A DNA stretch of 64,000 nucleotides from Candidatus Methylomirabilota bacterium (GTDB taxonomy: Bacteria > Acidobacteriota > Thermoanaerobaculia > Thermoanaerobaculales > Sulfomarinibacteraceae). This document shows, in pieces, positions 35,863-38,064 of this stretch. The translations under genes and the position numbers were made by a program. Within the stretch, counting starts at the first letter, position 1, and each line of letters opens with the position of its first letter. The stretch is taken from the NCBI GenBank assembly GCA_035464095.1, contig DATHSO010000191.1, positions 1,009 to 65,008 of the forward strand, read 5' to 3'. The notes under the pieces were generated by a model. That model saw only the letters and a list, made by a program, of their open reading frames with translations, had not been told where the DNA came from and did no database searches.

Positions 35863-38064
35863 ATGAGTATGGCTCAGAAGAAGAAGGTCACGAGACGAAT
35901 CACGATCGAAAAGGAACGGTCCGAGTTCAAGCAACTCCTGCTGAAGAACCCGAACCACTTCGGCACGCTCGCCGACAGCCCGCTCGAGGCGGTGAAGAAG
36001 ATCGCGGGCAACACCAAGTACGAGGAGCTGACCTGCATCGGCTTCAACCCCGCCCACGACCTGCTCGAAGCCACGGTGCGGATCAAGCTACCGTATGGCT
36101 ACGGCGGCAACCTCTGCGCCGCCGGCACGACCGAGTACGTACGGTTCTTCGTCGACTACGGCGGGGGCTGGGAGGACCTGGGTGTCGCCGGGTTCGCGAT
36201 CCACGACCTTCCCGATGACACCGACTGCGCCGACAAACCAAACAAGCCGCTGACCTACGTTGTCACGATGCCGGTCGACCCGAAGCGCAACTTCTGCGGT
36301 ACGCCGGTGATGCCCAGGGTCCGCGGCGTCCTGTCGTGGAACGTCATGCCGTCCACCGATCCCATCGAGCCTCCGGTGTGGGGCAACGTGCTCGACCGGC
36401 ACATCCAGATCCGACCGCGGCCGAAGCTGCTGTTGGATGTCATCGACGTCATCGCGGTCGAGCTCGGCAAGAAGATCGACATCCCCGAGGCCTTCAAGCA
36501 CCTCGAGAAGATTCCGATCCCGGAGCCCGGACCGCCGCCGGTCGAGCTCGCGGACCTTGCCAAGATGTACGCGACGGCCGCCAAGGGCAAGGCGACGAAG
36601 GGCGCGGCCGCGAAGATGGAGGTCGAGCCGCACCGGTTCGGCTTCAGCCAGATCGTGACCGCACTCGAGTCGCCGGCGGTCGAACCGATGGCCGTGACGG
36701 CGAAGATCGCAGCGTGGAAGGAGCTCGGCCTGGACTGGGCCGAGGCGGTGACCGCGGTCGAGAAGACGAAGGGCGACACGAGCTACGAGGAGCTGACCTG
36801 CATCGGCCTGGACTCCAACCGCGAGTGGCTGGTGGGCACCTTCGTGGTGAAGAGGCCGTCCGGTTACTCCGGCAACCTGTGCGGTCCCGGCAGCACCGAG
36901 TACGTCGCGTTCTGGGCTGACTGGGACGACACCTGCGAGTGGACCTACCTCGGCCACGCCGAGGTGCAGGTCCATGACATCTCCGGTCTCCCCGCCGGCG
37001 GCCTGTGCTACACGGCGATCCTGCCGGTCGACCTCGACACCGTCCGGCAGCCGTGCGCGCATCCGAAGATCGGCCGGGTGCGGGCCGTCCTGTCGTGGGC
37101 CGGCCCACCCTCGACCACCGATCCGGATGCGATCCCGTACTGGGGCAACCGGCTCGACAGTCACGTCCAGATCCGGCCCGGCGTCCCGGACGACGAGCTG
37201 CCCGCCAAGATCAGGTCGCTCGGCGGCATCAACGTCGAGGACATCAGCCCCGGCACCGGCCTGACGGTCCCGACCGCCAAGTTCTGGTACTACGAGACGC
37301 CGGCCGACCCATGGGGTCTGAGTCGCCCGTGTCCGTTCGGCGGTCTCGTGGTCATCGAGGGCAAGTACCATCCGGGTCACTACTACCGCATCGCCAAGCG
37401 GAGGGTGAGCGACCCCCCGGGCGCCTACACCTACGTGACGAACAGCTTCAACGTGCGGCGTGCCGACGTCGGCTCCGACCCGCAGGTGGTGGATCCGGCG
37501 ACCGGTTTCTTCACCTACAAGAACCCGCTGCTCTACCTCGATACCCGGCTCGCGTTGTGGTACACGGCCGGTGACGAGCTGTGGGCGGTCCGCATCGAGA
37601 TGGCCGACTCGCTGGTGCCGTTCCCGAACATCATCGCCGTCAGTCCCGAGTACCTGATCCAGCTCGACAACACCGCGCCATTGACGGCGCCGCCACTCGC
37701 GTCACCCAACATCGACATCCACATCGACAGCGGAGGCGACTGCAAGGACTTCATCGAGGGCGACACCATCGCCGGTCACTTCGTCGCGCGCGACCTGCAC
37801 TTCGGTGCGTTCTCGCTGACGACGATGCCGAACACGGCGACGTTCCCGTCGAACAAGCCCACGACGCCGCAACCGTCGACGTCCCAGACGCCGGCCTCGC
37901 CCGGCAGCCAGTGGTTCCTCGACACCGGCTCGCCGAAGACGATGAAGCCGTGCGGCTACGTCGTGCACCTGCGGGTGTGGGACCGGTCGATCGTCAACAG
38001 CCACCCCGGCTCGCACAACTCGAACCACATCGAGGTCGGGTTCTGCCTGCGGGCCGATACGTAA
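35863..38064 (+). CDS. Hypothetical protein (733 aa) with internally duplicated ~135-aa Cys-containing module
   Basis: The start is ATG 35863 (or 35869), after GAGGAGG. Module 1 is 36010-36417 and module 2 is 36775-37179. They share YEELTCIG..GY.GNLC..G.TEYV.F..D....W..LG...........C....P....V........C..P...RVR.VLSW...PS..DP...P.WGN.LD.H.QIRP. The 24-nt string TACGAGGAGCTGACCTGCATCGGC is identical in both. Confidence 0.8.
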   Translation: MSMAQKKKVTRRITIEKERSEFKQLLLKNPNHFGTLADSPLEAVKKIAGNTKYEELTCIGFNPAHDLLEATVRIKLPYGYGGNLCAAGTTEYVRFFVDYGGGWEDLGVAGFAIHDLPDDTDCADKPNKPLTYVVTMPVDPKRNFCGTPVMPRVRGVLSWNVMPSTDPIEPPVWGNVLDRHIQIRPRPKLLLDVIDVIAVELGKKIDIPEAFKHLEKIPIPEPGPPPVELADLAKMYATAAKGKATKGAAAKMEVEPHRFGFSQIVTALESPAVEPMAVTAKIAAWKELGLDWAEAVTAVEKTKGDTSYEELTCIGLDSNREWLVGTFVVKRPSGYSGNLCGPGSTEYVAFWADWDDTCEWTYLGHAEVQVHDISGLPAGGLCYTAILPVDLDTVRQPCAHPKIGRVRAVLSWAGPPSTTDPDAIPYWGNRLDSHVQIRPGVPDDELPAKIRSLGGINVEDISPGTGLTVPTAKFWYYETPADPWGLSRPCPFGGLVVIEGKYHPGHYYRIAKRRVSDPPGAYTYVTNSFNVRRADVGSDPQVVDPATGFFTYKNPLLYLDTRLALWYTAGDELWAVRIEMADSLVPFPNIIAVSPEYLIQLDNTAPLTAPPLASPNIDIHIDSGGDCKDFIEGDTIAGHFVARDLHFGAFSLTTMPNTATFPSNKPTTPQPSTSQTPASPGSQWFLDTGSPKTMKPCGYVVHLRVWDRSIVNSHPGSHNSNHIEVGFCLRADT

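Follow-up and report, generated by a model that had tools for sequence, protein, structure and literature searches.

A large family of internally duplicated beta-sandwich proteins in bacteria and archaea, with a possible binding role outside the cytoplasm

The stretch analysed here (the window) comprises 64,000 nucleotides of a contig deposited under Candidatus Methylomirabilota bacterium (GenBank assembly GCA_035464095.1, contig DATHSO010000191.1, positions 1,009 to 65,008 of the forward strand). At 35863-38064 (+) it carries an open reading frame (ORF) for a protein of 733 amino acids (aa), transcribed divergently from a pair of giant genes. The original prediction, made from the sequence letters alone, described this protein as an orphan with an internal duplication and proposed that it was co-regulated with the giants. 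The locus thus raises the question of what kind of protein this is and whether it works together with its neighbours. We report that it belongs to a large family, found in bacteria and in some archaea, which contains a duplicated module predicted to fold as a beta-sandwich, and that it is best read, tentatively, as a binding protein acting outside the cytoplasm, probably without a functional connection to the giants.

The ORF is present in the ORF list and is backed by full-length homologs (its coordinates include the stop codon), and the internal duplication is real, as residues 41-185 and 296-439 align with 45% identity over 150 columns (E 2e-34). With 11 gap positions in those columns, the statement that the modules align without large gaps also holds. 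In addition, when profiles of the two modules built from 246 family members were compared with hhalign, that of module A matched that of module B with a probability of 100% (E 9e-59), and the best explanation is that the duplication is older than the sampled family. The shared motifs that had been listed (YEELTCIG, GY.GNLC..G.TEYV.F, RVR.VLSW and P.WGN.LD.H.QIRP) are all found in both modules, and the identical 24-nucleotide (nt) stretch, TACGAGGAGCTGACCTGCATCGGC, lies at 36019-36042 and 36784-36807. The claim of four conserved cysteines per module was correct only in part: three are positionally shared (58/313, 85/340 and 145/398), but the fourth (C122 in one module, C358 in the other) occupies non-equivalent positions. 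The Lys/Ala-rich linker and the Thr/Pro/Ser-rich patch could be located at residues 233-256 (36559-36630) and 662-680 (37846-37902), respectively. A signal peptide is absent, as had been noted, and so is any transmembrane segment, the maximum 19-residue hydropathy being 1.34.

What did not survive is the description of the protein as an orphan: among 5.8 billion proteins searched, more than 2,378 homologs were found, of which the best 120, with lengths of 707-828 aa, cover 96-100% of the query at 50-96% identity. An exhaustive profile search over 1.84 billion cluster representatives recovered 1,317 clusters (50% identity) with E <= 1e-3, of which 544 reach E <= 1e-30; the full-length architecture is shared by most of the top 150, and the shorter members of this set resemble fragments. 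The family is one of proteins of about 700-750 aa, and it is distributed over at least 12 bacterial phyla and cultured archaea. Comparison with four homologs indicates that the gene is under purifying selection, with a ratio of nonsynonymous to synonymous substitution rates (dN/dS) of 0.12-0.27. On the other hand, the earlier statement that no described family or function can be recognised stands: the 733-aa protein has no match by sequence in Pfam, NCBIfam, PADLOC, PHROGs or the Protein Data Bank (PDB), the names given to family members at source are all "hypothetical protein" or "peptidoglycan-binding domain-containing protein", and a literature search by accession and locus tag returned nothing on any of them.

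In a collection with one genome per species, 385 stretches were confirmed as encoding members. The best 80 of these 385 belong to Acidobacteriota, Actinomycetota (Gaiellales and Solirubrobacterales), Chloroflexota, Cyanobacteria (among them the isolate Limnofasciculus baicalensis BBK-W-15), Ca. Brocadia, NC10, Verrucomicrobiota, Gemmatimonadota, Deinococcota (Meiothermus), Nitrosomonas, Sulfuricella, Desulfocapsa and Ignavibacteriales. Cultured carriers are also found in Ralstonia solanacearum/syzygii PSI07 (WP_013210339.1, 36% identity), Methylomarinum vadi and the archaea Methanolacinia petrolearia DSM 11571 and Haloplanus halophilus.

Nearest neighbours within the family cross the borders of phyla and domains. 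For instance, the 733-aa protein, encoded by a Sulfomarinibacteraceae-like acidobacterium, shares 75% identity with copies from metagenome-assembled genomes (MAGs) of Proteobacteria and Syntrophobacter but no more than 55% with any from other Acidobacteriota, the copies of Methanolacinia and of the gammaproteobacterium Methylomarinum vadi are 60% identical to each other, and for 35 of 85 sequences the nearest relative belongs to another phylum. The gene stands alone, because no conserved operon partner is found across about 85 loci: when the two nearest ORFs on each side were considered, no Pfam family recurred in more than four of them. Judged from these sequences, the family spreads horizontally as a single stand-alone gene among many bacterial phyla and some archaea. 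Several vehicles or roles that could accompany such transfer were considered and rejected. Neither the 50,697 phage records nor the 2.9 million viral contigs searched contain the family, and the PHROGs and PADLOC searches were empty, which speaks against phage cargo or a phage or defence protein; among plasmids, only the Ralstonia megaplasmid carries the gene, which speaks against plasmid cargo; and no hrpII box lies upstream of the Ralstonia gene, as would be expected of a type III effector.

The architecture of the protein was deduced from an AlphaFold2 model made from a 56-sequence alignment (mean local confidence, pLDDT, 90; global confidence, pTM, 0.86). In this model the protein is a compact all-beta particle formed by an N-terminal helix, two sandwiches, a linker, a beta domain and a C-terminal sandwich, and the pTM value argues for such a particle rather than for beads on a string. 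The conserved N-terminal helical segment (residues 13-45, 35899-35997, with model helices at 17-28) contains the motif EKERxxFKxLLxxNPN[YH]FG (35908-35964), in which R19, N29, N31 and F33 are invariant. It is followed by module A (residues 46-186, 35998-36420), predicted to be a seven-stranded beta-sandwich with strands spanning residues 54-180, and by the inter-module linker (residues 187-300, 36421-36762; 190-301 in the model), which combines helices, a Pro-rich PIPxPxPPP segment and the variable Lys/Ala-rich stretch, the latter being of low complexity and disordered in the model (pLDDT < 50). Module B (residues 301-441, 36763-37185) is the duplicate of module A, with its sandwich at 309-437. 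Then come domain C (residues 442-606, 37186-37680), a beta domain at 450-601 in the model with the motifs R-x-C-P-F-G-G (37324-37344) and LDNTAP (37663-37680), and domain D (residues 607-733, 37681-38061), a C-terminal seven-stranded beta-sandwich at 617-730 whose motifs GGDCKDF and KPCGYVV bear C627 and C697 and whose variable loop is the Thr/Pro/Ser-rich patch. All these features are on the forward strand. Conservation is highest in the two modules, module B being at the top, and lowest in the linker.

Domains C and D are not additional module copies, as hhalign detected no relation between them and modules A and B, and a hidden Markov model of the module found no further copies elsewhere in the window, the giants included. 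DSSP assigned seven strands each to module A, module B and domain D (pLDDT 82-90), in the two-sheet arrangement of the immunoglobulin (Ig)-like fold of E-set type; Foldseek gave such matches a probability of about 1, although TM-scores of only 0.3-0.5. A single module modelled separately (pLDDT 82) was also compared with the PDB, a check that the original prediction had proposed, and no well-known domain emerged: the best match has an E of 7.5e-4 with TM-scores of at most 0.4-0.5, and the proteins listed (NPC2, a carbohydrate-binding module (CBM), superoxide reductase and pilus chaperones) include no close structural relative. Consequently, the module corresponds to none of the well-known functional domains.

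Cysteines provide a first indication of where these proteins may act. C85, C145, C340, C398, C627 and C697 each occur in 241 or more of the 246 members, so that there is one near-universal pair in module A, one in module B and one in domain D; additionally, the loss of C58 goes with that of C313 (phi 0.90), and C122 and C358 come and go as a pair (phi 0.98). Paired, co-varying cysteines in Ig-like sandwiches are typical of oxidising compartments, and these pairs may form disulfides. Exported members retain them. Canonical Sec or lipoprotein signal peptides were found in 14 of the 319 members with the N-terminal motif and in 9 of 150 members of an unbiased representative set, and they sit directly before the EKERxxF...NPNYFG segment (for instance, MFKNVLKTITVLVLAAWFITPTFAQE immediately followed by AEKERAEY). 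Other members carry additional domains: N-terminal PG_binding_1 in 8 of the 150 representatives, N-terminal ComEA-type HHH_3 in 3 of 150, and a C-terminal lamin-tail domain (LTD) in some. Signal peptides are missing from all these fused forms, some of which come from archaea. Domains of the PG_binding_1 and ComEA types are characteristic of extracytoplasmic proteins, and the cultured archaea that carry PG_binding_1 forms, Methanolacinia petrolearia and Haloplanus halophilus, are not known to have murein.

The reading that we favour, with a probability of roughly 0.4, is that the protein is adhesin-like and non-enzymatic, and that it binds polymers of the envelope or matrix outside the cytoplasm. 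It is suggested by the signal peptides, the polymer-binding add-ons, the paired cysteines, the adhesins and matrix proteins (such as RbmA, Bap and SiiE) among the fold matches, a weak adhesin-like homology and the lack of any catalytic look. With respect to the latter, the invariant residues are mainly Gly, Pro, aromatic (W/F) and Cys, with a few acidic residues at equivalent positions in both modules, and no catalytic-looking motif is found among them. The homology concerns GEVED (PF20009), a domain defined from the streptococcal fibrillar adhesin CshA (PMC10952558), which is the sole Pfam model that matches module A repeatedly among 10 divergent relatives. Six of the 10 give such matches, at 13.5-20.7 bits, below the gathering cutoff of 24.4 bits, and the best case spans profile positions 1-74 of 78. 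According to this reading, the twin modules would present a conserved acidic and aromatic pole (E54/E309, E91/E346, D115/D372 and the WGN loop) as paired binding sites, and lineage-specific add-ons would serve either for export (signal peptides of Sec or lipoprotein type) or for tethering the core (PG_binding_1, ComEA-type helix-hairpin-helix (HhH) or lamin-tail domains). In each sandwich, residues equivalent to E54, C85, E91, H114-D115 and W173-G-N of module A would lie at one pole, which would suit a loop-based site; this placement was deduced from strand topology alone. Under this scheme the function would be one of binding, and an extracytoplasmic site would likewise apply to members without a signal peptide, such as the 733-aa protein.

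Some observations weigh against this proposal. The GEVED matches are below threshold, and the model has no match in the 733-aa protein (E <= 1) or in 41 close modules (E <= 10). About 90% of the members, including the 733-aa protein and those of cultured archaea, have neither a signal peptide nor a transmembrane segment, and the gene is linked to no secretion system by which this majority could leave the cell. Furthermore, the fold matches do not exceed TM-scores of 0.4-0.5, and an identity of around 50% between phyla exceeds what adhesins usually show.

The missing export signals, in bacterial and archaeal members alike, would be accounted for if the protein were a cytoplasmic self-assembling scaffold or lattice, or a ligand sensor, with structural or redox-sensing cysteines, the exported and tethered forms being secondary recruitments. 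Such a role would also agree with a conservation that, for a non-enzyme, is unusually high over the whole surface, with the compact and rigid particle predicted by the model, and with a strong or complex control of expression, as suggested by long non-coding regions upstream of the gene. In Acidobacteriaceae, genes for an extracytoplasmic function (ECF) sigma factor, an anti-sigma factor and a CHAT protein are found upstream. However, the members with Sec or lipoprotein signal peptides keep the same cysteine pairs, the pairs themselves point to an oxidising compartment, and the PG_binding_1 and ComEA-type fusions point outside the cytoplasm; we therefore find a cytoplasmic role doubtful. Another possible role is that of an antibacterial weapon aimed at the cell wall. 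Its core would act on peptidoglycan, by lysis or by blocking, through a module that has escaped recognition; the protein would be set free when cells lyse, or be delivered by a contractile injection system, and bacteria and archaea would exchange it in the manner of GH25 lysozymes and archaeal peptidoglycan hydrolases. The fusion of PG_binding_1 to the core in both cultured archaea fits this idea, as do the likeness of the Methanolacinia and Methylomarinum copies, the two near-invariant Glu residues per module and a small membrane protein, possibly an immunity or release factor, encoded next to the gene in 23 of 90 loci. Moreover, the PG_binding_1-fused gene of Methanolacinia petrolearia (10001-12424 in the stretch of CP002117.1 that was compared) lies 2 kb downstream of a contractile-tail-like cluster (1-8271) with baseplate J, sheath initiator and Phage_tail_APC genes, followed by small transmembrane proteins. 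It has been shown that archaeal PG_binding_1 hydrolases kill bacteria and that those without a signal tend to co-occur with contractile injection systems in genomes (PMC12352652); this killing, together with the precedent of an antibacterial gene transferred across domains (PMC4241558), lends support to the weapon. Nevertheless, PG_binding_1 is present in only about 5% of the family and other members carry a DNA-binding HhH domain instead, the core bears no likeness to any hydrolase fold or motif, most loci (the window included) have no adjacent immunity-like gene, the tail-like cluster is found in no other homolog locus, and phage and viral collections lack the family altogether. We consider this explanation unlikely, and quite improbable in its more specific form, namely a new, non-canonical antibacterial or envelope-targeting factor moving across domains, whose twin-sandwich core would act on a universal bacterial envelope polymer, with signal-less delivery by lysis or as contractile injection cargo and with PG_binding_1 as the aiming device in archaea that lack murein.

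A metal or redox protein, with a Cys/His centre in each sandwich, is suggested by a weak Foldseek match (E about 3e-3) between the module and superoxide reductase and by the two cysteines plus His/Asp that are conserved per module in the close subfamily. Across the 246 members, however, the candidate histidines are often replaced by Y, F, L or N (H114 in 194, H180 in 98 and H434 in 159), which makes a Cys2His2 site unlikely, and the TM-scores are about 0.3-0.4; the idea is accordingly very improbable. Even less can be said for the role implied by the original prediction, that of a co-regulated functional partner of the divergent giants, which are encoded at 27037-31599 (-; 1520 aa) and 31603-35346 (-; 1247 aa). 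Neither giant has a Pfam match, and the second contains a coiled-coil stretch. In its favour, the intergenic region shared with the 1247-aa gene contains two copies of a palindrome that is unique in the window, and the arrangement is kept in a sister genome (MAG GCA_035466355.1, locus L008), which encodes a homolog with 96% identity and in which synteny extends even to the cytochrome bd gene at the flank. Yet, when both giants and the protein encoded downstream were searched with tblastn against 90 homolog loci, matches were found in that sister locus only and the giants were missing from the other 89; neighbours are already unrelated at 77-79% homolog identity. The 1247-aa giant, whose weak matches are of tape-measure and MukB-like type, has a widespread family of its own, made up of conserved hypothetical proteins (at least 742 homologs, 53-88% identity, mostly from Acidimicrobiia/Actinomycetota), and it has no domains in common with the 733-aa protein. 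The expected co-occurrence is therefore confined to a near-identical genome. Missing linkage among homologs had been named in the original prediction as refuting it, and the comparison of loci shows just that; a functional or regulatory tie to the giants is extremely improbable, and the binding protein proposed above is in all likelihood not their partner.

At the level of the gene, a longer frame of the same ORF starts with GTG at 35716 (+), but translation probably begins at the second ATG (35869), which would give 731 aa. This is suggested by the spacing of the ribosome-binding site GAGGAGG (35854-35860, +), 8 nt 5' of that ATG, by the MAE or MAQ starts of homologs, and by the 96%-identical homolog, which is called at this position. 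A GGAGG-like box is seen at the same place in the alignment of homolog loci.

The space between this gene and the divergent 1247-aa gene does measure 516 bp (35347-35862), as had been stated. It contains the 16-bp palindrome twice, as TCACCCAAATGGGTGA at 35465-35480 and as TCACCCATTTAGGTGA at 35585-35600, 120 bp from the first copy; these are the only two copies in the window, where none is expected by chance, and both are kept in the sister locus. The pair looks like a paired operator for a dimeric regulator that could serve either gene, and it lies closer to the start of the giant gene than to that of the 733-aa gene. As a family-wide operator it was discarded, since upstream copies are limited to the sister locus and a single further contig, the one represented by loci L091-L093. 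On the latter, an unrelated metagenome contig, a similar palindrome, TCACCCGGGTGGGTGA, is found at 554-569 of L091 (also in L092 and L093), around 20 nt 5' of the start codon of a homolog with PG_binding_1-core-LTD architecture (P0205); it could be a chance occurrence (roughly 0.003, estimated post hoc) or a site for a shared regulator. Apart from the sister genome, the upstream regions of homologs fail to align with that of the 733-aa gene. An Rfam search of the upstream region and the gene gave no match, no sigma-70-like promoter was found, and terminator-like sites were not above chance expectation. A long non-coding stretch, of about 280-860 bp, precedes the gene in most loci for which gene calls are available.

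With regard to other neighbours, the small membrane protein mentioned above is DUF1360-like, and its gene adjoins that of the family in 23 of 90 loci from two phyla, being directly downstream in Terriglobia and directly upstream in Gaiellaceae-type Actinomycetota (examples are in L056-L090, such as L064 12198-12557, and in L018 4839-5186, L019 and L053); the window lacks it. It has three predicted helices, the pattern WRxTHLL..EDGP...DCFYCLSxW and a CxxC where a helix begins, and it may be a partner in export, oxidation or immunity. The upstream cluster of Acidobacteriaceae (L056-L076 and others, for instance L064 4926-9597) encodes the ECF sigma factor, a zf-HC2 anti-sigma factor, an unknown protein of 281 aa and a tetratricopeptide repeat (TPR)-CHAT protein of 900 aa, of caspase-like type; an ECF sigma and anti-sigma pair is also seen upstream in L001.

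A few further genes were noted near members of the family. In the window, the downstream ORF at ~38400-40784 (+) has a signal-peptide-like N-terminal helix, a HEFGH zinc-protease motif and no Pfam match, and its C-terminus, with a hydrophobic helix and then RLRRKRR, resembles a sorting signal; Lgt is encoded after it, at 40738-41649. ABC-3C-type conflict system genes (Pfam CTD7 and MC3) lie directly downstream of the Syntrophobacter homolog (L005 12687-14243), and an integrase and an SLFN/AlbA_2 gene are near that of L004; these are isolated cases with an island-like context. Membrane or redox-type genes occur in L094 (12542-13950), L002 (13830-14279) and L009 (269-1048), namely HTTM beside a PG_binding_1 form, MauE/DoxX-like and DsbC_N/thioredoxin genes, which are too few to speak of enrichment.

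For the window, the outcome is negative, in the sense that the gene is neither an orphan nor tied to the giants. For the family, if the proposed reading holds, it would be among the larger well-conserved ones that lack a name, a model or an experiment (at least 1,300 clusters at 50% identity), with carriers that range from Acidobacteriota of soil and sediment, Actinomycetota, Chloroflexota, Cyanobacteria and NC10 to anammox bacteria, nitrifiers, Ralstonia plant pathogens, methanogens and haloarchaea. Envelope- and matrix-binding proteins would thereby gain a new architecture, and a concrete puzzle about export would arise, as the same core exists with and without signal peptides. The archaeal PG_binding_1 forms connect it, in addition, with the new question of antagonism between archaea and bacteria, and the existence of several cultured carriers makes it directly testable. 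Nothing so far indicates an unprecedented mechanism: the family is novel as such, but it is built from a known class of domains, and we only infer what it does.

How does it compare, then, with systems that are already known? GEVED domains and the family modules are both small beta-sandwiches of extracellular type, and the module pattern ...EYVRF.DY..GW.D...RVR..LSW...WGN.LD.H.QI presumably follows the GEVED order, a likeness drawn by eye that we take as a lead only. The GEVED motif itself is replaced by WGNxLD: a search with the expression G[ED][VIL][EQ]D gave no match, and the corresponding stretches read WGNVLDRH and WGNRLDSH. CshA-like fibrillar adhesins have a signal peptide, a repetitive stalk and a wall or membrane anchor; the 733-aa protein, by contrast, is a compact 80-kDa protein with two module copies, without stalk repeats and without a wall anchor. 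Peptidoglycan hydrolases and endolysins share with one subfamily the N-terminal PG_binding_1 domain and, often, the lack of a signal peptide, also in archaea. Unlike them, the family core has no recognised catalytic domain (no amidase, peptidase or glycosidase is matched in Pfam or NCBIfam, and the fused relatives have only the binding domain), and the 733-aa protein has no PG_binding_1 either. F5/8 type C (discoidin) domains match domain C weakly in 2 of 10 divergent relatives (Pfam, E 5e-4 and 0.07), far below threshold and not at all in the 733-aa protein, and the best matches of the module include a porphyran-binding CBM. A profile search of the PDB aligned only 47 residues around the CPFxG segment of domain C (37324-37440, family-profile residues ~473-519; E 1.2e-3) with ribosomal protein uS17, the R-x-C-P-F-G-G...G.Y.Y pattern being set against the N-terminal beta-strand region of eukaryotic and archaeal uS17 (KKCPFTGxVxVxG), a relationship that was dismissed as a probable coincidence of short motifs. 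Membership in the alpha-2-macroglobulin/thioester proteins is not supported, given the lack of a CxEQ motif and TM-scores of 0.12-0.14. Finally, Ig and fibronectin type III (FN3) arrays are, like this protein, strings of seven-stranded sandwiches, and only generic arrays of this kind were found by Foldseek with the full model (PDB and BFVD). The matches include the MG domains of alpha-2-macroglobulins, the FN3 domains of contactins, RbmA, Bap, SiiE and Ig-like phage tail proteins, with E about 1e-8 and a probability of about 1, at identities below 11% and TM-scores of 0.1-0.2. According to the model, the protein thus resembles these arrays at the level of the domain class only.

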